Source of the DNA: a virus
Taxonomy: Duplodnaviria > Caudoviricetes
DNA length: 64,000 nucleotides
Reading direction: 5' to 3' (one strand)
Virus record (IMG/VR): IMGVR_UViG_3300035520_000885
Span: 50,128-114,127 of that record
Below are positions 189 through 60,974 of the stretch, piece by piece. A program made the translations under genes and the position numbers. The notes beneath the pieces were generated by a model. It saw only the letters and a program-made list of their open reading frames with translations, searched no databases and was not told the DNA's origin. The number at the start of each line of letters is the position of its first letter. Positions within the stretch are counted from its first letter, which is position 1.

Positions 189-2789
189 TCATTTTACCAT
201 GATTCTGATATAGTTGGCTAGCCTATTATCTGCATCCGTATTATTTTTTGTATCAATAATATCTACTGGGTACATATTAAACATGTTATTGTGACTGATG
301 ACGAAGATTTGTTCTCCGTCTATCATATTCATCTGTTTCTCGAGTATCTGTAAGAACTTCTCTCGATTAGATGTATCCAAAGTAGAATCAATCTCATCTA
401 ACAACATGATGTTGTACTTGGAGATGGATTGATATATGAGGGCAAAAGAAAATGCTAAGGATATAAAACTTCTTTCTCCCTGGGATGCATAACAGACATC
501 TCCAATTTCTGTTCCTTTCGTAGTATAAGGAATCTTGAACTCATCAGCAGTGATATTGAAATTCTCTATATAGAGTTCATCATCATAGACAATTTCCAGC
601 AACTCATTTGTGATTTCCTGGATACTTTTTAGATATATCTGAATATAGAGAAGAGGAATTCCTTCCTTAGCAGATAAAGCATTCTTGACAAGTTCCATCT
701 CATCATATTTTGTATTATATGCTGAGAGGTCTTCATTAAACGATAAGTAAGACTTGATTCTATACTCAGTATCATTAAACTCTTTCAACGCTTTTTCATA
801 CTCATATTTCAATCGGTCGTACTGCTGGAGGAGGTCTTTCTTTTTTCGAAAAAAATCGGTTAATTCATCATAACTATCCTGGAGTTTCTCTACCTCCAGA
901 ACAAGTTTTTCTCTAGATTCTAATGCTTCAATAAATTCCTTATGGAATTCAATATCTTCAATGGTATCCTTTCTATCGGATTCCAGAGTCTCTATCTCTT
1001 CGTTGATCTTTGTGAGAGAATCGGCAGTTTTCTCTAATTCATCAGAGATATCTCCAATCTTATTAGAAAGATACTCAGAATTTCCAATAGATAGTTTCGT
1101 AAGTTTCAACTTCTCTTTCAGTCTATCCAATTCTGCTAAATCCGTTTGCTGCAAATCATATTCTGTGGCAATCGTTAATAGAGAATAGATAGCTTGCTTA
1201 TTGTAGATGGGTTTCATATCCACAATATTATCCATGAAAGTCTGAAGAATGAAATCTTTCTGAATATCTGTGGGAAGCTTCTCTAAAGTAGATTTGCAAT
1301 CTCTCAGATTCTTCAGAAGCCCCATGATAGTCTGATGAGACATTTTCACATAGGTGACGAATGCTTCATCCTCAATGACGACATCCGGTTCCTCTGTGAC
1401 CAAATCAAATAGAGTATTATAGAAATCCTTGATATCACAAGCATCAGTGCATTTTGTTTTAACAGGCCCGATTTTCTTAAGGATATACTGATACACAACT
1501 TCGGCAGCATTCTGAAATTTGCTTTTTTCAGACTTCTGCTTATTACTGGTCACATACTCAGAAATATCCGTATTGCTCAGAATATAACTAGCAGCTTTCT
1601 TGATGGGTTCTTTTCCAAATTCATACATGGTAAGAACCATCTCAGAGCACTTATCCAGCATGACGATTAAGTCTTCCAATTCTTCCTTGGATACTTTGTT
1701 ATCATACTTAGATAAAGAGCACTCTGTATCACGCTTCTGAATCTTTGCACGAAGCTCAGAAATCATATATTCAAGATTCTTAACGTCAGCAGATTCAGCT
1801 ATCTTGTCAAGTTCATCTTTAATCTCATTAGAATCACAGATGAGCTTATCGTATACATCAAGAAGTTCTTTTCTTTTCTCTCTACTATGAGCGATATCAG
1901 ATTCAATCTGTACTAGATTCTTCTCCAGTTCAGTAGATTCTTCTCTCATTTCTTCCAGAGATTTAGAATCTAGCTTTCCTTTCTGGACAAGTTTCTCCGC
2001 TTTCACACATTCTTTTTTCTTGATATCCAGGTTTTCCTTTACCTCAAGAATAGAATCGTACTTGGAAATCTCATACTCAATCACATCAAGTTGACTCTTC
2101 ATAGAGTCTAGAGCAGACTTCAATGTCTCAATCTGTTTCTGTCTCTCTTTTTGAGATTTCTTAGCCTCATCTATGTCTCCAATAGAAAGCTTTGTAATCT
2201 TATCTACAGTATGAGAGATGACAGATTTGACTTCTCTCATATCTGCAACGATTTTCTTATAGTATTTCAGATAGATATCTACTTCATCAAGAATCTTTCC
2301 CATGAAGGATTTTCTGTCCGTAGTCTTGAGGTCAATGAAGTTTGTTACATTACTCCCAAGCCTAGTAAGCTTCAGATAATCCATCTCAATTCCAAGTTCT
2401 TCATGGATAATATCCTTGAAGGACTTCACATTTCCATTCACATTCAACTCATTCCCGTTTTTCTCTATATAGGATTTTACGGTATGACTGTCCTTAGATG
2501 CAGTATAGAAATGCTTGATGACGTATTCGTCTCCATCATCTTCGATACGGATTTCTTTATATCCATCCTCCCCGCTTACGATAAGAGGATTTTCGCTTCT
2601 TACATCCAGATTACCATTTGTAGCAAACGGATGCATACAACTAAGAATACTGGTTTTTCCACTTCCATTTGGCCCAGTAATCAGTATAATCTTATTTTTA
2701 CATTTCGTGAGATCAATACTAATCTCATCGCTATGATACGCAGTTTTGATATTTGCGAAGTTTCTTAATAGGATATATGTAATTTTCAT
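189..2789 (-). CDS. sbcC: SbcC/Rad50-like SMC ATPase
   Basis: Walker A GPNGSGKT, long coiled coil, signature ASQGE, Walker B LLDEID, H-loop ISH. Confidence 0.9.
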   Translation of the reverse strand: MKITYILLRNFANIKTAYHSDEISIDLTKCKNKIILITGPNGSGKTSILSCMHPFATNGNLDVRSENPLIVSGEDGYKEIRIEDDGDEYVIKHFYTASKDSHTVKSYIEKNGNELNVNGNVKSFKDIIHEELGIEMDYLKLTRLGSNVTNFIDLKTTDRKSFMGKILDEVDIYLKYYKKIVADMREVKSVISHTVDKITKLSIGDIDEAKKSQKERQKQIETLKSALDSMKSQLDVIEYEISKYDSILEVKENLDIKKKECVKAEKLVQKGKLDSKSLEEMREESTELEKNLVQIESDIAHSREKRKELLDVYDKLICDSNEIKDELDKIAESADVKNLEYMISELRAKIQKRDTECSLSKYDNKVSKEELEDLIVMLDKCSEMVLTMYEFGKEPIKKAASYILSNTDISEYVTSNKQKSEKSKFQNAAEVVYQYILKKIGPVKTKCTDACDIKDFYNTLFDLVTEEPDVVIEDEAFVTYVKMSHQTIMGLLKNLRDCKSTLEKLPTDIQKDFILQTFMDNIVDMKPIYNKQAIYSLLTIATEYDLQQTDLAELDRLKEKLKLTKLSIGNSEYLSNKIGDISDELEKTADSLTKINEEIETLESDRKDTIEDIEFHKEFIEALESREKLVLEVEKLQDSYDELTDFFRKKKDLLQQYDRLKYEYEKALKEFNDTEYRIKSYLSFNEDLSAYNTKYDEMELVKNALSAKEGIPLLYIQIYLKSIQEITNELLEIVYDDELYIENFNITADEFKIPYTTKGTEIGDVCYASQGERSFISLAFSFALIYQSISKYNIMLLDEIDSTLDTSNREKFLQILEKQMNMIDGEQIFVISHNNMFNMYPVDIIDTKNNTDADNRLANYIRIMVK

Positions 2790-2865
2790 TCAAATACCTA
2801 CTTTCTTCTCATATAAGAAACGGTCATCTGAAATATGAAAAAGGTGAGTTTGAATAATTTTCTAC

Positions 2866-2877
2866 AACATAAGTTTA
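2866..2877 (+). promoter_or_regulatory. Late-type phage promoter AACA-N6-TA
   Basis: AACATAAGTTTA; the same motif precedes many genes in the window; no + strand ORF follows. Confidence 0.6.
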
Positions 2878-3160
2878 ATCATTCATCTATGATTTCCCAG
2901 GTGGGAGCACTATGTTTATGCTATCAGCATGCCTGTCATGCATAAACTGAGCAGGCTTCTTCGGTGTTGTAGAGCTTTTTTGCATTTGTTTCCTTCACAG
3001 AGATAGATTGCATCTCGTTCACGCGTCTATGGATAACTCCTCCTATATGATATGTTTGGGTGCACGTTACAATTTCTGCGGGGCATGCTGATCCGCTAGG
3101 GTAGCGGGGCCCTGGCAACCTGCTCAGTTTGACAGGAATCGCATCGAAAGATGCGTGTTA
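2878..3160 (+). ncRNA. Candidate structured (pseudoknotted) non-coding RNA
   Basis: Crossed helices 2923-2934/3081-3092 and 2944-2955/3119-3130, GAAA-capped hairpin near 3140-3155, promoter upstream and terminator downstream. Confidence 0.6.
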
Positions 3161-3163
3161 AAT

Positions 3164-3200
3164 AAAGAAGTGGATACAGTTGATTCTGTATCCACTTCTT
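3164..3200. terminator. Intrinsic terminator hairpin
   Basis: aagaagtggatacag...ctgtatccacttctt. Confidence 0.75.
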
Positions 3201-3210
3201 AAGACCCATT

Positions 3211-4467
3211 TTACTTGAGTTTGTAAATATCCTTAACGAGATTATTGACGTAATCGACATTAATCATGATAAGGATTTTATAAGTGTAGTACACATCACA
3301 ATTGTGGAACTGCAATGTGTAATCATCAAAGTTGATGGTATAGTCCTTCCCATATTCAAGAAGTTTTCCTTGTTTCCTTACTCTAATTCTAAAGAAGTCC
3401 ATCAAGGTGATTCCTCTATCTGTATGGAATTTGATTGCAGCTTTGATGCTATTACTCAGTAAGCTATCAATAGATACTGAGTCATTTTTTGTCTCCAATC
3501 TGCAAGATGGAGAAGCATAAAGTTGCCAGCCCATGGGAAGGTCAATATCATCCTTAGTCAATACGTCTGTGAAGATAGGAATGATATTGGAATCGTTAGA
3601 GTTATCAATTGTGATAACCGTTGGATTCACTAAAGCGTCGGAGAACAGATAATAGAAACCAGTAGAGTAGAACTCACATCTCACATTGAAAGAAATACTA
3701 TACCGCTCAGAAATCTGTCCAACCTGAGACCCTTCATCAGGACTAAAGTTCGTGATGATAGTGTCGATATTCACAGGATAGTACCGATAGTATTCATCGG
3801 AATTTGTGCTACCTTGAAGCTTATAAGTGATAGGGAAAGCAGAGTTAGAGTTCAGGTATTTCAGAAATTCCCTGTTGCTTCCATTCTCATCATACATAGG
3901 AATCCCTACGATTTTAGAAAGTTGCTCAAGGAGTTTCGGGGAAATGTAACTCTCCAGACATGTCTGAAGGAAGAATGGAATCTCCTGTCTGACGGCATTC
4001 CTGAAATAGTTGGCCCAGTTAATCTGCTGAATCATAGTCTGGAAAATCAATACAACATCGAAATTCATGACATGTCGATTCATCTGATACTTGATGGCTA
4101 CCTTTCTTCCTCTGTCCATAAAAAAATCTTGCAGATTCGTTCCTGCATATTTTGAATACAGGTCTCCCTGTCTTTCAATCAGCATCGTTCCATTTAAGAA
4201 CTTAGATGTATCCGTCCAGTCGATTTTAGGACGGATGATAAACATAGGAGGAGCTTTCTTCAGAAACTCCTTTGGTGTACTCCGCATTTGAGAATGTGAA
4301 ATCTTAGAATTCACATGGATGGTACGGAATAAATCTTTCGGAAATAGATTCAGTAACCAGTTCTGAATGAATGCCGTCACATTTCCAAATGTATGAGCCG
4401 TAGAGCACTGGCACTGTATATAATGTACAGGGTGACCCTCAAAGAATTCTTTTTTAAAATCCTCCAT
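3211..4467 (-). CDS. Hypothetical protein, probably virion structural (late gene)
   Basis: ~418-aa ORF, SD AAGGAG, late promoter AACATTGTATTA at 4493-4504. Confidence 0.6.
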   Translation of the reverse strand: MEDFKKEFFEGHPVHYIQCQCSTAHTFGNVTAFIQNWLLNLFPKDLFRTIHVNSKISHSQMRSTPKEFLKKAPPMFIIRPKIDWTDTSKFLNGTMLIERQGDLYSKYAGTNLQDFFMDRGRKVAIKYQMNRHVMNFDVVLIFQTMIQQINWANYFRNAVRQEIPFFLQTCLESYISPKLLEQLSKIVGIPMYDENGSNREFLKYLNSNSAFPITYKLQGSTNSDEYYRYYPVNIDTIITNFSPDEGSQVGQISERYSISFNVRCEFYSTGFYYLFSDALVNPTVITIDNSNDSNIIPIFTDVLTKDDIDLPMGWQLYASPSCRLETKNDSVSIDSLLSNSIKAAIKFHTDRGITLMDFFRIRVRKQGKLLEYGKDYTINFDDYTLQFHNCDVYYTYKILIMINVDYVNNLVKDIYKLK

Positions 4468-4703
4468 GATTTTCACTCCTTTCTTTATTGCTTAATACAA
4501 TGTTTTCTAGGCAATTTCTTGATTCCGTTCTATAAGTGAAGCATATATTATAATACTAAGACATAGAAAGATATTCGAATAGATTTTCTAAAAGGAGATG
4601 ATGACTATGTGGATGCGTGGGCCGTAGGTCTCTCCGCACATAAATACATACGGGGTGTACGTATGTATGTTTTTTGTTTTGGATATGAACAAATACGGGA
4701 GAG

Positions 4704-5147: not shown

Positions 5148-5568
5148 TTAAATCAACATGTCATCCACGTCGATTTGTTTAGACGAAATATTAGAGGTGT
5201 GGAATTTCTTCATACCCAGTCTCAGAAGAGTAGTAGCAATCTTACTACAACCGAGACCAATATTCTGACGGTCAGTCATGTAATTCATTTCTCCAGCACA
5301 GATATTGCAAATCTTGTCTGTAGTGCAGTACATGGGAGATCTCAAATTTACATGCTTTCCAACGTATCTATCAATTACATCAGGGGTGAGAAGTTTGGGC
5401 TTCCCACCTTCCATAATATAACGATAGAAATAGGATCTCTTATTTTTTTCAGTGATTAAGATATCCAGAGTCTTCTTGCATTGGCAATCCGTCCCATGGT
5501 CATCAATCACTTCAGTCTGCATAGCAGCCAATAGCTGCTTTGCAAGATATCCTGATTCTTGAGTTCCG
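5148..5568 (-). CDS. rpoC: Putative virion RNAP beta-prime C-terminal subunit, exon 2
   Basis: GTQESGYLAKQL (bridge helix, cf. TADSGYLTRRL), RSPMYC..ICNICAG zinc site, RLGMKKFH trigger loop; joined to exon 1 gives 399 aa. Confidence 0.85.
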
Positions 5569-6783
5569 CATTACTTGTATTCATAATAGGTCGTTACTCT
5601 ATTATCGCTTTATTCAAGCTGCTCTATATTACTATAGAGAGTAGACTATATCATCACTATACATCCTGTTACCAGACATATAATGCCATGCGCTTCGATT
5701 TAATGGATTTACTATAGACTAATCTCATCTATACACCAACCCAATCACTTGGCTCTACTCTACTTACTTCCTCATATAGGTGTTTCTCCTATACTATGCT
5801 TTCGATAGTCGTTGAACGTCGATTAGAAATCATAATCTTTTGAGATATCCTTTCTTCTTCTATGAGTACGGATATCCTTAACCAATTCTCGTTTAACCCC
5901 AAACAATGCAGCAATCTCTGGGTCTTTATACTTCTTTAACTCAAGCATCTTACAAATCCCATGAATAGTGGATAATGGAATGGTATTAGGAATTGAATTT
6001 CCAAGCTTCGGAAATTTGTATCTGGATGTAATGTGCTTCCAGCACTCACCAGAACGAATGTGTTGTATCGTCTTTTTTCCAATACCAAGTTTTTTGGAAA
6101 TCTCTCCATTATTCATTTTCTTCATAATGCATTCGCAGATTTCAATAGCTTCCTTCTCACTAATTTTAGCAAGATGCGCATTCTCTCCACGAATACCATC
6201 ACAAAGACCTTCTCTCCAGGCGTGCTCTGTATTTTCTTTTCCTGTCACCCACTCAAGATTGAAAGCCGCGTTATGATGTTTATTCCCATCTTTATGATTA
6301 GGAACTAAATCATCGAAGCGCTTTCCATCTTTTTTATGTCGTTTCGGAATCTCACAGAAGTACATAGCAACTAACCTATGAATACTGAATTCTTTCTTCT
6401 CACCATTTATCTTCACATACCCTCTATAGTATATGAGATTTTGGCCAGAGAAATCATTTATTGTTTTCTTCTTGGTATTTTTAAGACGACCATGATTCGA
6501 TATCTGATACTGAGTTCTACTTCCATCATCATTTAGGATCCATTTCCAAACCTCTTTGTACTGACTAAGCATTGTATTATAGATAGCGTCAGGTTGCTTT
6601 GAATTGAAGATAATTTCAAGGTTAAAAGATGTTTTAGGCATTTTGCAATACACTCCCTAATATAAGATTTAGTATAATGTACTGCAAACATTATTTTAAT
6701 AATTTCTAATCTTTCGCTGCTGATTGTCGACACTTGTCGATGTTCCAGCAATTCACATGGTTTAAAGGCTGCCACAACTCAAA
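5569..6783 (-). mobile_element. Group I intron (1215 nt) carrying an HNH endonuclease
   Basis: P1 aaggctgU/Gcagcctt, core AATTGCTGGAA, AATCAGCAG, CAACGACTA, GATATAGTC, terminal G; splicing restores PKAV|GTQESGY. Confidence 0.88.
5823..6653 (-). CDS. Intron-encoded NUMOD4/HNH homing endonuclease
   Basis: YQISNHGR, IHRLVA, NHKDGNKHHN..NLEWVT..EN, C-terminal HTH-like repeats. Confidence 0.88.
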   Translation of the reverse strand: MYCKMPKTSFNLEIIFNSKQPDAIYNTMLSQYKEVWKWILNDDGSRTQYQISNHGRLKNTKKKTINDFSGQNLIYYRGYVKINGEKKEFSIHRLVAMYFCEIPKRHKKDGKRFDDLVPNHKDGNKHHNAAFNLEWVTGKENTEHAWREGLCDGIRGENAHLAKISEKEAIEICECIMKKMNNGEISKKLGIGKKTIQHIRSGECWKHITSRYKFPKLGNSIPNTIPLSTIHGICKMLELKKYKDPEIAALFGVKRELVKDIRTHRRRKDISKDYDF

Positions 6784-7562
6784 ACAGCCTTCGGGTAAGC
6801 GCCTGATACCACAGCAGTACCGAAACTTGGGATGTCTTCTTTACGAATACCATCCATAAAGGAAGACCTCACGATTTCGTACTCACCGCGGTTATTCATG
6901 GTAGCACCCTTAAATAAATTCATATTCTTGTAGTTACCGAAGTTACCACGAGCTTCTGAATTATATAGATCCATACCAGGATCGCCCTTAAGAATCTCTT
7001 TTGCATCTGCAACAAGCTTCTTCTCAATCTTTTCAGAAGTAACAATGTCACCTGCATTGAGTTCTTTATCATACTTCTTAAATAGCTCTTCCTTTTCTTT
7101 CTGTACAGATGGAGGAGTTTTAATTGTATTCATGGTGAAAGAAGTGGTTATGACAGAATTGAGCTGCATTCCCAGATTATCACGGTAGTCGATATATCTG
7201 AAGAACTGGTCAATCGTCATTTTATCTTCAATCAGTGCTTGTGTAAGTTTTCCTTCCAACTTACCATTTACACTCTTCGTAATGGGTTCATTGACATAGC
7301 CCAAGACTTTCTGCAAGCCAACTCTTTCTACAATGTACTTATTATAGATGAATCTTCCTACAGTAGTTTCAGTCTCTTTATCAACGAAGTATTCTTTTGG
7401 AGTTAATACCATAGTATCAGTGGTGTTGAATCTACTTTTCTTAGTAGATTTCATATCTGCACCAATCTGAGTAGTATCTCCAAAGAGTCCAACTAAAGTG
7501 GAGAAAGATAAGTCTTCCGGTTTCAGAGAAAGCAAGTACTTCTTTTCAGAATCACTAATCAT
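6784..7562 (-). CDS. rpoC: Putative virion RNAP beta-prime C-terminal subunit, exon 1
   Basis: TTVGRFIYN, SEARGN, IVRSSFMDG, SGAYPKAV match beta-prime regions; ends at the intron P1 U.G pair. Confidence 0.85.
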
Positions 7563-8992: not shown

Positions 8993-9136
8993 ATGTTAAT
9001 CAGAATGGGAAGCTATCAGAAGAGCGGGGGCTTGAATAAGCTCCTGGGCAGGTCTTCCAAAAAAATTAAGAAAGCCGCCAATAAGCGGCGTAAGGCTGGT
9101 GGATTTGTATTCACCGGCCTGAAGGGAGGTAAGTGA
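8993..9136 (+). CDS. Small basic protein (47 aa), not in the ORF track
   Basis: SD GAGGAG; MLIRMGSYQKSGGLNKLLGRSSKKIKKAANKRRKAGGFVFTGLKGGK*; fills the gap between neighbouring genes. Confidence 0.65.
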   Translation: MLIRMGSYQKSGGLNKLLGRSSKKIKKAANKRRKAGGFVFTGLKGGK

Positions 9137-28974: not shown

Positions 28975-29400
28975 CGGACAATACAATTCATATCTCTATG
29001 AAGCCAGACTATATCTTCATTGTATTTCTACAATGCCTCCCGTTTCGGTTTATTACATCCGAAGATGCTCACCTACATTTCGCTCTATAATTGAGCCTAC
29101 TCGGTTCTACCTATTTTATAAGTAGCCTTTCCCTAGTCGTTGAACACACATCTCAATGAGATGCTTCGCTGCACCGATTGTCTCTACCTCTAATCTTTTT
29201 ACTATACCTTTGGAGTTACCCATTGCCATCAGATGTGTCACCACTCTGATTTAGTAATTAGAGTCTAGCGAGATGTCCCTGCAGTTAGAGAGGTTTTAAT
29301 TCTTCCAGAGGTGCCAAAAAGCTTACAGAAGTTAAAGAAATTAATGGACCTTTATTAAGCATAATTTCCTAAACCCAGGCAAACTCCTGGCGACAGGTTA
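28975..29400 (-). mobile_element. Group I intron, ORF-less (426 nt)
   Basis: P1 attcttU/Gaagaat with long L1 loop, GTTCAACGACTA, AAGATATAGTC, terminal G; restores KGPHSL|GG. Confidence 0.82.
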
Positions 29401-40654: not shown

Positions 40655-40731
40655 TGGTGACGATGGCGAGGCTCGAACTCGCGACCCACTGCTTAAAAGG
40701 CAGTTGCTCATACCTACTGAGCTACATCGTC
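40655..40731 (-). tRNA. tRNA-Lys (UUU), CCA encoded
   Basis: Acceptor GACGATG/CATCGTC-ACCA, anticodon arm ACTGC-CTTTTAA-GCAGT, T-loop TTCGAGC. Confidence 0.95.
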
Positions 40732-47936: not shown

Positions 47937-49057
47937 ATGGGTAAACAGCTTGTGCGCATGACTCGTCTGAACTGGGACATTGAGTTCTTACAGGATATCA
48001 TTAGCAATAATGGTTTCCTGATTACAGAACCTGCGACGTTCCAGCAAGACGACATGAAGCAAAAATCTCTATATGGTGCTAGGTCTACTTTGTATGGCAC
48101 TAGCTATGACGACGAAACAGCATTCATTGAACGATATCGCTGTCAGTGCGGTTCGTTTAAAGGAAAGGTCTTTGAGGGAGAGATTTGTCCTTTCTGTGGA
48201 AAACCTGTAGAATTTCGAGATGTGAATATCGAATTTACAGGTTGGATTTCCCTCGGGAGTCACTATATTGTCAATCCGCTCTATTACAATCGGCTTTGTA
48301 AGTTGATTGGTAAGACTACTTTTCCGGAGATTGTAAATGTGAAGACTGTCGTGGATACCAATGGTAACATGAGAGCGCTCACATATGAAGATCTGGATGA
48401 GAAGCCGAAGCATCCGTTCTTTGGAATCGGATTGGTGGAGTTCAGGAAGCGCTTTGAAGAAGTCCTGAAATGGTTCAAAGCAAAAAAGAAGGGCAAAGAA
48501 GAAGAGTTCGACCGAATGATTTCGGAGTCCTCTTCTGTTTTCTGCTCTCATATTCCTATCTACTCTACTCTTCTGAGACCTCAGAGTAGCACTTCGGATA
48601 CTTACTACTTCAACCCGATTGACAAACATGTGAATCCCCTCTTTACACTGTCAGAGAAACTCAAGAAAGCAGAGGAAATTGATGAGAGATTCATTCTGCA
48701 AAGAATCCAGTCTCGTGTCAATTCTCTCTGGGATATCAACTTCGATTTCCTGAATGGTAAGGAAGGTTTGATTCGAGGTCAACTCTTAGGAGGAAGCCTC
48801 AACTATACCTCCCGGAATGTTATCATTCCAAATCCTGGATTAAGGGATGATGAGGTGGACCTGAGCTACCACACTTTCTTGGAACTCTACAAGTTCAAAA
48901 TCATCGCATATCTCATGCAGATGGACAACATCTCGCTCGCTAAGGCTTATAACATTTGGGCCAAGGCATATAGATTCGACAATCGAATCTATGAGATTAT
49001 GCTTCTCATCATCAAGAACACGAAACCGTTAATCTTGATGAACCGTAATCCGACGCT
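47937..49057 (+). CDS. rpoC: Putative non-virion RNAP beta-prime N-terminal subunit, exon 1
   Basis: CQCG...ICPFCG zinc finger, GKEGLIRGQLLG, SRNVI, NRNPTL; spliced product 467 aa. Confidence 0.88.
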
Positions 49058-49457
49058 AAAATGTTTGGTGTCATTAAACCTATCTAATTGCGGGAAACTC
49101 GCTTAATCTATGATTACTAACTCATAGCAGTGATGTATATGAGGGCAATGGGCAATTCCAAAGACATAGTAAAAAGATCGTAGATGTGATAATCCGCAGC
49201 GAAGTATCAAGTTCGACTTGATATATGCTCAACGACTATGGAAAGCTAGACATCCAGATTGATAGAAATATCTAAATAGAGTTTTACTCTAGCTGGATTG
49301 AAAATAAGGTAGATTGAAATATCTACACGAAGCGAGTAGGTCCGACAGGGACGAAAGGTAGATGAGGATGGAAACATCCAACAGTCGAAATGATAGGCTT
49401 TTGTTATTATGGTAAAAGTGATAACAACTGAAGATATAGTCTGAAGTGAAAACTTTG
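49058..49457 (+). mobile_element. Group I intron, ORF-less (400 nt)
   Basis: P1 gacgcU/Ggtgtc, AATTGCGGGAA, AATCCGCAG, CAACGACTA, AAGATATAGTC, terminal G; restores NRNPTL-NYYSM. Confidence 0.88.
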
Positions 49458-49563: not shown

Positions 49564-50852
49564 CAACTCGAGGTCCGGGTGTGCAGTAATGTACATGAGG
49601 AATCACGTGAACGCTTAACAAGCGGTGTGAGCTATTGCAAAATAGCTTGCTAACGGTAGAAGTTAGATAAGGTACATCAGCAAATTGGTACACGAATACA
49701 CTTTCTAAGAGAGCCTACGGTCCAGCAATGGATAGCAGGTAATACCGTGCCAAGCTTCTTCAATCAAAAGCATATATTATACCGAAGTTATACTAAGGAG
49801 GTATATTATATGAAATTTACCAACAGCAAGCAAATCGATCTCTATGGTGAAAAGGTTAGTTGTATTTACATCGTAACCAACGAGGTTAATGGTAAAGTCT
49901 ATATAGGACAAACTGTCAATTTTCGTAACCGATTGAGCGATTACCAAAATATTCATCACAAAGACTCTAACTCCCAATCAATTAAGAAGGCCATCGTACT
50001 ATATGGCACTGATAACTTCACGATTGACATTCTTGAACTCTGCGACCCAGATGACTTAGATAACCGTGAAGCTCACTATATTGAGGAGTATCAATCCACG
50101 GATAGGAATTTTGGATATAACTACATGAAGCATACCTACCATTCTAACTCTGAAGAATCGAGGAAAGCAAAATCCATCGGTCATATGGGGTTGAAAGCTA
50201 GTAGGGCTACTAAGATGAAGAAATCCAATATGATTCTTGCCGTGAAAGATAATACTTTGATTAGTGCATATGGCGCTAAGTTCTTTGGGGATTATGTAGG
50301 TGCAGGGAAGGATCTTGTGAAGAACTGTCTTAGACAGCCTTGCAAACTTCATGGATACCGTCTCTATTATGATGATTTCTATAAGAGACAGGAAATCCGT
50401 AAGAAAGTGATGAATATGAAAAAGCGTAAAGATACTGAGTATCTTGATGTTTTGGACGCTATTGATATGATTGAAGTTGAAGGTCTAGAGACTATGGATC
50501 TGTATTTCGATAAAGTTTTCATCCTTGTAGAGGATGAGAATTCTGAATCGGGATTCAGACTTGACAACTATACAATCGAAGAAGAATTAGAAGATTATTC
50601 TGTGGACGAGTTCGATTATCCCATTATGGAAGAATCGGAAGAGGAACCGGTAGATATCTTCGATTATCTTTAATTGTAGTCAAGGTACTGGTTAGTTGGA
50701 GTGGCTAACTGGGAAGCGCGTGGCATCCTAATTATGAATACCTAAAATATATTCATAAAAGGATGAAGATATAGTCCGAATTACAAACCTAGTCAAAGTA
50801 GTTAAACCTAAAAGTTTGACTTACAAAAAATTTGATTAGATAAAGTATTCCG
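49564..50852 (+). mobile_element. Group I intron (1289 nt) with GIY-YIG endonuclease, inserted in the NADFDGD motif
   Basis: P1 cggaU/Gtccg, P10 ttcga/tcgag, AATACCGTG, TAGAGACTA, AAGATATAGTCC, terminal G. Confidence 0.88.
49810..50673 (+). CDS. Intron-encoded GIY-YIG homing endonuclease
   Basis: SD AAGGAGG; CIY...NGKVYIGQT..FRNR, E..YI, GYN. Confidence 0.88.
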   Translation: MKFTNSKQIDLYGEKVSCIYIVTNEVNGKVYIGQTVNFRNRLSDYQNIHHKDSNSQSIKKAIVLYGTDNFTIDILELCDPDDLDNREAHYIEEYQSTDRNFGYNYMKHTYHSNSEESRKAKSIGHMGLKASRATKMKKSNMILAVKDNTLISAYGAKFFGDYVGAGKDLVKNCLRQPCKLHGYRLYYDDFYKRQEIRKKVMNMKKRKDTEYLDVLDAIDMIEVEGLETMDLYFDKVFILVEDENSESGFRLDNYTIEEELEDYSVDEFDYPIMEESEEEPVDIFDYL

Positions 50853-60373: not shown

Positions 60374-60442
60374 TTCCTTCATCCTCCTTTATGAGTTCAT
60401 TAAAGGAATGTTTTTTGTAGGAAAATATACTGAAAAGGCGGC

Positions 60443-60520
60443 AAAAGAGAAGAGGACAATCCTCTTCTCTTTTTACCATATTTTTTAAGGAGTTAGTCAA
60501 GTTACTACTTTCTACCGTTT
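60443..60520 (-). ncRNA. Candidate anti-SD small RNA 1
   Basis: Promoter AACATAAGAGTA 60520-60531, ACUCCUU, terminator 60443-60473. Confidence 0.5.
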
Positions 60521-60564
60521 ACTCTTATGTTTGGTGATTATGAAAAAATATTCATAATGGGGGA

Positions 60565-60653
60565 AGAAATAGCAAGGAAATAAATCCCTTGCTATCTATC
60601 TTCCAAAGTTATATTTACGGAGGTGTCACATGAAGCCCAAGCAGCTACCGCTT
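60565..60653 (-). ncRNA. Candidate anti-SD small RNA 2
   Basis: Promoter AACAAATAAATA 60653-60664, UUCAU-N5-ACCUCC, terminator 60569-60595. Confidence 0.5.
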
Positions 60654-60677
60654 ATTTATTTGTTGTAAATTGGGGGC

Positions 60678-60790
60678 AAAGAAGCAGAGTCCGAAGAACT
60701 CTGCTTCTTTTATCCACAGGAGGGTTTTTATGAATTTTCAGCTTGTAAACTCGAAAAACTACCACAGAAGATCAATCAACCACTGACCTT
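60678..60790 (-). ncRNA. Candidate anti-SD small RNA 3
   Basis: Promoter AACATATTTTTA 60790-60801, UUCAUAAAAACCCUCCU, C(UUCG)G terminator 60678-60710. Confidence 0.5.
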
Positions 60791-60974
60791 AAAAATATGT
60801 TTTAGAAATTGTAGTGGATAATTTTTTATGAATCTGATCAATCTCATCTTTAGTCAATCTATTGATAGAAAGATAGAGATTATCAATATCAGTCATTGTT
60901 TCGCCACGATTCAATCTAACGATATACGCATTCACGTAAGTTTTCAATTTCATAGCGCTCAGAGTACTTGCCAT
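60789..60974 (-). CDS. Small hypothetical protein
   Basis: SD GGAGG, 61 aa. Confidence 0.65.
   Translation of the reverse strand: MASTLSAMKLKTYVNAYIVRLNRGETMTDIDNLYLSINRLTKDEIDQIHKKLSTTISKTYF

Follow-up and report, generated by a model that had tools for sequence, protein, structure and literature searches.

The analysed sequence is a 64,000-nt window (positions 50,128 to 114,127) of the IMG/VR virus record IMGVR_UViG_3300035520_000885, a 114-kb viral contig that represents ~47% of the genome. A 421-nt gap (2790-3210) of the window is flanked by two minus-strand genes, one for an SbcC-like ATPase and one for a 421-aa protein. The gap contains an element on the plus strand, in which a predicted late promoter is followed by two long crossing helices, here named P1 and H1, by a segment with the letters of the 16S rRNA 3' tail, and by a terminal hairpin. 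This element is almost certainly a real and conserved RNA gene. Its features are collected in Table 1. In the following, WIN stands for the RNA of the window itself, and L-numbers stand for lineages or loci of relatives.

The RNA belongs to no described family. Rfam 15 was run over the whole window at gathering thresholds, covering families that include tmRNA, RNase P, SRP, 6S, group I/II introns, ribozymes, riboswitches, RsaE, C4, pRNA and GOLLD/ROOL, and gave no match in 2790-3210. At E <= 10, the search of 2700-3300 and two relatives returned only chance-level miRNA/snoRNA matches far below the thresholds, and ARAGORN reported 0 tRNA/tmRNA genes in 2700-3300. These results agree with a first-pass annotation of the window, which had not recognised the element as tmRNA, RNase P, SRP, 6S or a self-cleaving ribozyme. 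Elsewhere in the window, Rfam matches at gathering score were group I introns at 28986-29382 (-) and 49048-49302 (+) and a tRNA at 40658-40731 (-). A borderline match to the Pseudomonas small RNA P26 at 9062-9120 (+) (38.9 versus 36 bits) is probably a terminator-like chance match.

The region was also said to hold no credible open reading frame (ORF), and this was confirmed. Plus-strand ORFs are 25-36 aa only, reading frames differ between relatives, indels are frequent, and no ORF is conserved on either strand among the relatives compared. A plus-strand 12-codon ORF (MFMLSACLSCIN) after GGGAG was rejected as a gene, as neither L041 nor L034 preserves its frame. Small minus-strand ORFs after an AGGAGG were rejected as well, being unrelated among the lineages that have them. 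No start codon follows the minus-strand AGGAGG in eight of 15 lineages, and in a ninth (L034) there is a start-stop only. With neither a conserved start nor a conserved ORF behind it, the motif is therefore conserved as RNA and not as the Shine-Dalgarno (SD) sequence of a gene.

Table 1. Features of the RNA element, its neighbours and the units compared with it
Feature	Position	Strand	Remarks
AR9-type late promoter AACATAAGTTTA	2866-2877	+	AACA-N6-TA; transcription start predicted at its last A (2877)
Two 5' hairpins, AAUCAU..AUGAUU and UCCC-AGGU-GGGA	2877-2906 (2877-2894; 2895-2906)	+	Predicted by minimum free energy (MFE) and constrained folds
H1 5' strand AUCAGCAUGCCU	2923-2934	+	Pairs with 3081-3092 (11 Watson-Crick pairs and 1 G·U)
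Linker GUCAUGCA	2935-2942	+	Makes motif GCAUAA with U2943-A2945
P1 (closing helix) 5' strand UAAACUGAGCAGG	2943-2955	+	Pairs with 3119-3131
Anti-SD-like motif CUCCUCCU	3037-3044	+	First CUCC in the 7-nt loop of hairpin 3025-3051
H1 3' strand GGGCAUGCUGAU	3081-3092	+	Conserved CUGCG just before; CUGCGGGG(C/U)AUG common to WIN and L041
Hairpin CCGCUA-GGG-UAGCGG	3093-3107	+	In the loop between H1 3' and P1 3' strands
P1 3' strand CCUGCUCAGUUUG	3119-3131	+	Followed by conserved UUGA(A/C)A
3' hairpin CGCAUC-GAAA-GAUGCG	3140-3155	+	From sequence
15-bp terminal hairpin, arms 3165-3179/3186-3200	3165-3200	both	Repeat search; terminator common to the plus-strand RNA and the 421-aa gene
SbcC-like ATPase gene, 866 aa	189-2789	-	Pfam SMC_N/AAA_23; PHROG 77 SbcC-like; divergent neighbour of the RNA gene
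421-aa gene	3211-4476	-	Convergent neighbour; phrog_21946, function unknown; anchor for finding relatives
Three tandem late units, ~90-110 nt each	60390-60812	-	Just upstream of the promoter of a 1442-aa gene; AACA-N6-TA promoters at 60801, 60664, 60531
AR9 unit (L043, KU878088.1)	3152-3335 of L043	antisense	Late promoter; ~80 nt; ACCCCUCAA, then the neighbour's hairpin terminator
BpSp unit (L044, KT895374.1)	2840-3000 of L044	antisense	Late promoter; ~55 nt, directly before SbcC; UCCCCCA

Promoter, terminal hairpin and conservation of the unit

The late consensus of phage AR9 was determined by differential RNA sequencing (dRNA-seq) as AACA-(6N)-TA/G with the last base as the transcription start site (TSS) (PMC5312081), and the start of the RNA is placed at A2877 by this rule. 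The window has 27 AACA-N6-TA sites, of which 14 fall within its 11.8% of non-coding DNA. Nine of these non-coding sites lie 24-44 nt ahead of a gene start on the same strand and share the extended consensus aAAACA-N5-TTAA, which site 2866 (cAACATAAGTTTAAT) also fits. From site 2866, the nearest downstream plus-strand gene is 5.6 kb off. The motif is kept in nearly all lineages of relatives, on the strand opposite the flanking genes and 48-77 nt from the sbcC start, and is the best conserved block in the L003-L008 group. The late promoter proposed in the first-pass annotation is thus consistent with the motif, with its enrichment before genes of the window and with its conservation.

The better U-tract of the terminal hairpin is on the minus strand, so this hairpin acts primarily as the terminator of the convergent 421-aa gene. 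Its counterpart in most relatives is preceded by an A-tract and followed by a U-tract, and therefore can serve both strands. The terminator described earlier at 3164-3200 exists as a hairpin; it is not the RNA's own, being shared with the 421-aa gene.

Relatives were gathered with the 421-aa protein as the anchor from IMG/VR, JGI metagenomes, and ENA and Logan contigs via a protein database. The protein matched no Pfam family in a Pfam search. In the protein database, 285 relatives of it were found. The loci collected make up ~25 distinct lineages of uncultured jumbo phages with 40-74% protein identity. This clade holds ~250-kb phages from metagenomes, some of which are human-gut samples. No nucleotide similarity was detected by blastn between the gap and the gaps of the relatives, and the gap and 8 kb gave no match to phage records by blastn or megablast. 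A search of viral contigs with the pattern TGTCATGCATAANNTG yielded 105 stretches, all chance, none of which joined the promoter, the P1 complement and CCUCC.

The gap itself is kept in nearly all lineages with a length of 266-786 nt. In most of them A(A/C)CUCCUU is located downstream on the promoter strand, inside a long closing helix, and the RNA length is 150-680 nt across the clade. In L042, a STIV B116-like gene (3090-3368) on the RNA's strand is inserted between the RNA gene and sbcC, and the element is 660 nt from sbcC. The RNA unit is therefore independent of sbcC and is not an sbcC leader.

Two further observations concern single groups of relatives. In L167-L169, L172-L174 and L184-L185 (gaps 735-786 nt), the unit is enlarged to ~630-680 nt; a 19-bp long-range helix surrounds its UAUUCCUCCUAAU motif, and CCUCC occurs a second time close to the 3' end. 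In L027 (3065-3126, sense strand, before sbcC) and also in L035, an upstream CUCCUUU in the sbcC leader can pair with the AAAGGAG SD of sbcC itself.

Two crossing helices and the probable functional strand

The repeat search recovered 2944-2955/3119-3130 as 12 bp (100%) and 2923-2933/3082-3092 as 11 bp (100%); the second helix, H1, reaches 12 bp through a U2934-G3081 wobble. The two crossing 12-bp helices of the first-pass annotation are therefore present, as are the two local hairpins it had listed, CCGCTA-GGG-TAGCGG and CGCATC-GAAA-GATGCG. H1 and P1 interleave (2923 < 2944 < 3092 < 3130). When the WIN RNA was shuffled, a 12-bp Watson-Crick long-range stem was obtained in 0/200 shuffles (p ~0.005).

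Whole-RNA MAFFT alignments across the subgroups were too poor for column-wise counts, so pairs were counted on anchor-based alignments. Six lineages (WIN, L041, L034, L032, L035 and L037) could be aligned around the GCAUAA ahead of P1. In these, 72/72 cells of the 12 P1 columns were paired, and 9/12 columns showed compensatory double changes; the comparison of WIN with L041 alone gave six such changes. In more distant lineages the CCUCC domain is surrounded by a helix that differs from P1 but is just as long, for example 12-13 bp in L162, L163 and L164, and in L172 even 19 bp. A Watson-Crick long-range stem reached p <= 0.05 in 10/24 lineages, and it encloses CCUCC in 9 of these 10. RNAalifold on the L003-L008 group found local hairpins only, because of alignment errors.

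H1 was found at the equivalent topological place in six lineages (12 bp in WIN, 8 in L041, 11 in L034, 11 in L032, 7 in L035 and 14 in L190), with unrelated sequences. Its 5' strand is positioned just ahead of the linker, and its 3' strand 0-55 nt ahead of the P1 3' strand. Between WIN and L041 one compensatory change was observed, from CAUGCC/GGCAUG to CAUACC/GGUAUG. The crossing contact was significant in a shuffle test over nine lineages (combined p = 0.0012). When H1 was added to a fold that leaves its strands free, the energy was 3-8 kcal/mol below the nested MFE in 5/5 lineages, before pseudoknot penalty. As predicted from sequence, WIN qualifies as a long-range pseudoknot (H-type topology), with interleaved helices that each have comparative support, and the folding models make it likely that H1 and P1 form together.

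Short elements around the helices are also kept. The segment (GUCAU)GCA-UAA is found in WIN, L041, L034, L032, L027 and L035. Right after the H1 3' strand, where WIN has the hairpin 3093-3107, L041 has a hairpin of different sequence (UUAAGC..GCUUAA). A 3' hairpin (GCAUC..GAUGC or similar) followed by UUUAUAUA occurs in L027, L034, L038, L041, L042 and L190. In contrast, the competing pairings that had been read as alternative folds, and possibly as a switch, are not kept. The pairings 2914-2921/2940-2947, 2932-2938/3130-3136 and CCAGG/CCTGG are present in WIN but not in L041, the closest alignable relative, and neither the 2914-2921/2940-2947 hairpin nor the 2932-2938/3130-3136 extension has a counterpart in L041 or L034. 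A switch therefore has no comparative support.

The region 2866-3200 folds ~5 standard deviations better than shuffles on both strands, so folding energy indicates structure but not the functional strand. H1 and P1 contain 20 G·U among 150 bp. When the helices were folded on either strand with 6-nt flanks free, they were more stable on the plus strand in 10/13 cases (-231 versus -201 kcal/mol), and the clearest case was L190 with six G·U pairs. The promoter, the G·U pairs and the U-rich tails make the plus strand the functional one with high probability. Together with the synteny, the conserved promoter, the compensatory changes in P1, the recurrence of H1 in six lineages and the conserved anti-SD motif, these data bear out the earlier proposal of a novel, free-standing pseudoknotted non-coding RNA (ncRNA).

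The anti-SD motif and its possible function

The conserved A(A/C)CUCCUU has the same letters as the 3' tail of 16S rRNA, which is the anti-SD sequence. Its CCUCC was predicted to be more unpaired than the molecule average in 13/15 lineages (0.47-0.9 versus a mean of 0.36-0.5). The first-pass annotation had described this motif in the enclosed segment as an echo of small RNAs near 60.4 kb. The motif is indeed present, and three units with CCUCC-type motifs (AACCCUCCUGU, ACACCUCCGU and ACUAACUCCUUAA) were found at 60.41-60.80 kb. Each of them ends in a GC-rich hairpin of the AAGAAG..CUUCUU type, like that at 3165-3200, and then UUUGCC. From their sequences, these units look like small late anti-SD RNAs.

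The following model is proposed for the element. The plus strand from 2877 to ~3160-3204 would be a free-standing ncRNA gene of about 285-325 nt, which the non-virion RNA polymerase (RNAP) of the phage would transcribe late from the AR9-type promoter, with the start at A2877. The RNA would fold around P1, and H1 would cross P1 to form a long-range pseudoknot. H1 and P1 together would enclose a ~125-nt domain that displays A(A/C)CUCCUU, partly in a hairpin loop. Through its exposed CCUCC, the RNA could pair with the AGGAGG of ribosome-binding sites in mRNAs of the host or the phage and block the docking of the 30S subunit, with the pseudoknot as a stable scaffold for the anti-SD segment. C/U-rich-seed small RNAs of Bacillota act by masking SD sites. 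As a whole, a late pseudoknotted ncRNA gene with an SD-pairing anti-SD segment is the best explanation of the data, held tentatively and at somewhat less than even chance. The masking function taken by itself is possible but a little more doubtful, as the pairing with SD sites is what we infer. A bolder extension, which is rather unlikely, is that AR9-like jumbo phages seize translation with a set of late RNAs, of which this one would be the large, scaffolded member. The three small CCUCC RNAs at 60.4-60.8 kb and the miniature units near sbcC in AR9 and BpSp would be further members. The RNA might then be a structural mimic of the 16S 3' tail, which either absorbs SD sites across the genome or serves as a decoy for an anti-SD-reading factor or nuclease. 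If true, this would be an RNA-based counterpart of the T4 RegB-type shut-off.

Several observations weigh against the model. Duplex and exact-complement scans of the 114 kb (~47% of the genome) found no complement to the CCUCC region longer than 10 nt, and the start regions of sbcC and of the 421-aa gene showed no specific or consistent pairing with the RNA. A generic anti-SD RNA would also strike the late mRNAs of the phage itself, whose SDs are strong. The element is absent from L030, L157 and L158, where the gaps are only 85-134 nt; in L170 a gene for a ~150-aa protein with a strong SD replaces the RNA behind the equivalent promoter; and in L032 the CCUCC-type motif is reduced to ACACCUCUUU only. 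The alignable covariation of H1 is a single pair, and its presence in other lineages is deduced from recurrence. Transcription of the window's RNA is a prediction, the plus-strand U-tract of its terminal hairpin is poor, and the whole-molecule fold z-scores are modest and alike on both strands (mean -1.3 versus -1.4).

Among the other explanations, the first is that CCUCC serves as an internal structural or tertiary contact in a structured RNA with another function, for instance as the scaffold of a phage protein complex or in replication, packaging or the phage nucleus. Consistently, the G-runs beside the H1 3' strand (CUGCGGGG, in WIN and L041) could pair with CCUC, as in the L041 stem 96-102/155-161. 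The wide variation of RNA length over the clade would fit such a role, and the conserved unpaired GCAUAA and UUGAAAAU beside P1 are not explained by an anti-SD role. However, CCUCC is predicted to be unpaired in most lineages, and the motif recurs in three unrelated small late RNAs of the genome, which make this explanation unlikely.

Quite unlikely is a second explanation, that the RNA is a decoy or mimic of the 16S rRNA 3' end. An exposed ACCUCCUU on a scaffold would titrate a protein that reads the anti-SD tail, and thereby protect or re-program ribosomes. Candidate proteins are a host abortive-infection or MazF-type ribonuclease, a colicin-like rRNase or a ribosome-associated factor; some MazF toxins cleave 16S rRNA at UCCUU. 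The conserved motif exceeds CCUCC and extends to the letters of the 16S tail, large rigid pseudoknots are commoner in protein-binding RNAs than in seed-type small RNAs, and no specific mRNA target was found in the 114-kb scans or at the start regions of the neighbours. On the other hand, synteny links no partner protein to the RNA, since its neighbours are SbcC and the 421-aa protein, and the genome also has short CCUCC RNAs without a scaffold.

A cis-antisense regulator has a similarly low probability. Here the plus-strand RNA would pair with minus-strand read-through from the 421-aa gene into sbcC, and the duplex would be cut or sbcC would be blocked late. The RNA does lie between two co-oriented genes. 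On the minus strand of the gap, the motif scan of the window gave no AACA-N6-TA promoter that could serve sbcC, whose expression may therefore depend on read-through, and a comparable AR9 transcript is listed as 'Antisense'. However, a pure antisense RNA needs no conserved intramolecular helices, pseudoknot or CCUCC, a strong hairpin terminator is located ahead of the gap on the minus strand, and in L042 the RNA and sbcC are kept apart by a gene that runs on the RNA's strand.

The first guess for this locus was that the minus-strand RNA is functional, as a 5' leader of sbcC that is long and structured in the manner of a riboswitch or thermosensor and has AGGAGG as a standby site. Watson-Crick helices are strand-neutral, and the z-scores of the two strands are alike. 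This guess was dropped and is now very unlikely, because the conserved promoter is on the plus strand, the G·U pairs favour the plus strand (notably the six in L190), most lineages have no start codon after AGGAGG, and the L042 element is far from sbcC with an opposed gene between. Least probable of all is a DNA-level element for recombination, replication or SbcCD-related palindromes, since the helices, although they are perfect inverted repeats adjoining sbcC, have crossing arms 148-163 bp apart that are ill-suited to cruciforms, tolerate G·T pairs (20 in 150 bp) and co-occur with promoter, CCUCC motif and terminator across the lineages carrying the unit.

Cultured phages and known RNA systems

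By SbcC, the nearest cultured phages are those of the AR9 group: Bacillus BpSp, AR9/PBS1, Staphylococcus UFV_DC4, Listeria LPJP1 and Yersinia phiR1-37. In the window, a gene for an RNAP beta-like subunit (phrog_2962; phage multisubunit RNAP) is located at 5148-7562 on the minus strand. A 276-aa NUMOD4/HNH endonuclease ORF, an intron- or intein-like insertion, divides this gene into two ORFs. The local gene order of AR9 is similar, with RNAP beta' upstream of SbcC.

When the promoter motif rule was applied blindly to AR9, it predicted a plus-strand start at 115851, inside the g142-g141 gap, which precedes SbcC (g139) by two genes. The same position, 115851 (+), is listed as a late 'Antisense' TSS in Table S3 of PMC5312081, with a step height of 278 versus 14-26 at neighbouring promoters. 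This shows, as an analogue of the window's element, that orphan late promoters of such kind fire in the AR9 phage group. Since AR9 is cultivable and its start site is mapped at a comparable position, it would provide a tractable test system.

The units of AR9 and BpSp resemble the WIN RNA in having AACA-N6-TA opposite the flanking genes, a gap at or near sbcC, a C-rich motif and the terminator of a neighbour. In BpSp, the UCCCCCA is complementary to the SbcC SD, UGGGGGA. Unlike the WIN RNA, these units are about 55-80 nt and have no long-range helices, and the likeness is one of position and promoter, not demonstrated homology. The AR9 flanking gene g142 has no detectable relation to the 421-aa gene (tblastn of the 421-aa protein against phage records found nothing). 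As a separate observation, the 370-390-nt gaps upstream of AR9 g142 (L043 2097-2464) and BpSp gp209 (L044 1737-2125) share the blocks GCTACGGGCA..CCGTGTAAATGAACAA..TCGATATCG, which could be a further conserved non-coding element of Takahashivirus phages.

No structured ncRNA of such kind is described for jumbo phages, and Rfam holds no matching family. Nor is any mentioned for jumbo or AR9-like phages in a 2025 review of phage small RNAs. The RNA family is a candidate for a new Rfam entry and an annotation marker for these phages. If the RNA acts on translation initiation, phages with their own transcription machinery would also steer translation by RNA.

Among RNAs that act at ribosome-binding sites, the c4 antisense RNA of phages P1/P7 is also phage-encoded, and it acts in trans on a ribosome-binding region and stops translation (PMC12197685). 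However, c4 measures ~77 nt, arises by processing of a leader and, within a single operon, pairs with specific a'/b' sites. It comes from a temperate phage, depends on host RNAP and lacks a pseudoknot scaffold, and the WIN RNA has no Rfam C4 match. GOLLD, ROOL, raiA and OLE are, like the WIN RNA, conserved ncRNAs with complex folds known mainly from metagenomic phage or Bacillota sequence. The WIN RNA is smaller than these, gave no Rfam match at E <= 10, and has very low sequence conservation outside short motifs.

RsaE/RoxS, LhrC and the streptococcal csRNAs share with the WIN RNA an unpaired CCUCC-type loop motif, a stand-alone gene, and an own promoter and hairpin terminator, and the genes of the WIN phage carry strong SDs, as Bacillota genes do. 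The WIN RNA is two to three times longer than these small RNAs and has no sequence or Rfam relation to them. In contrast to them, it carries the motif within a domain closed by 13 bp and crossed by a 12-bp helix, and it is phage-encoded, with a predicted late promoter of the phage RNAP.

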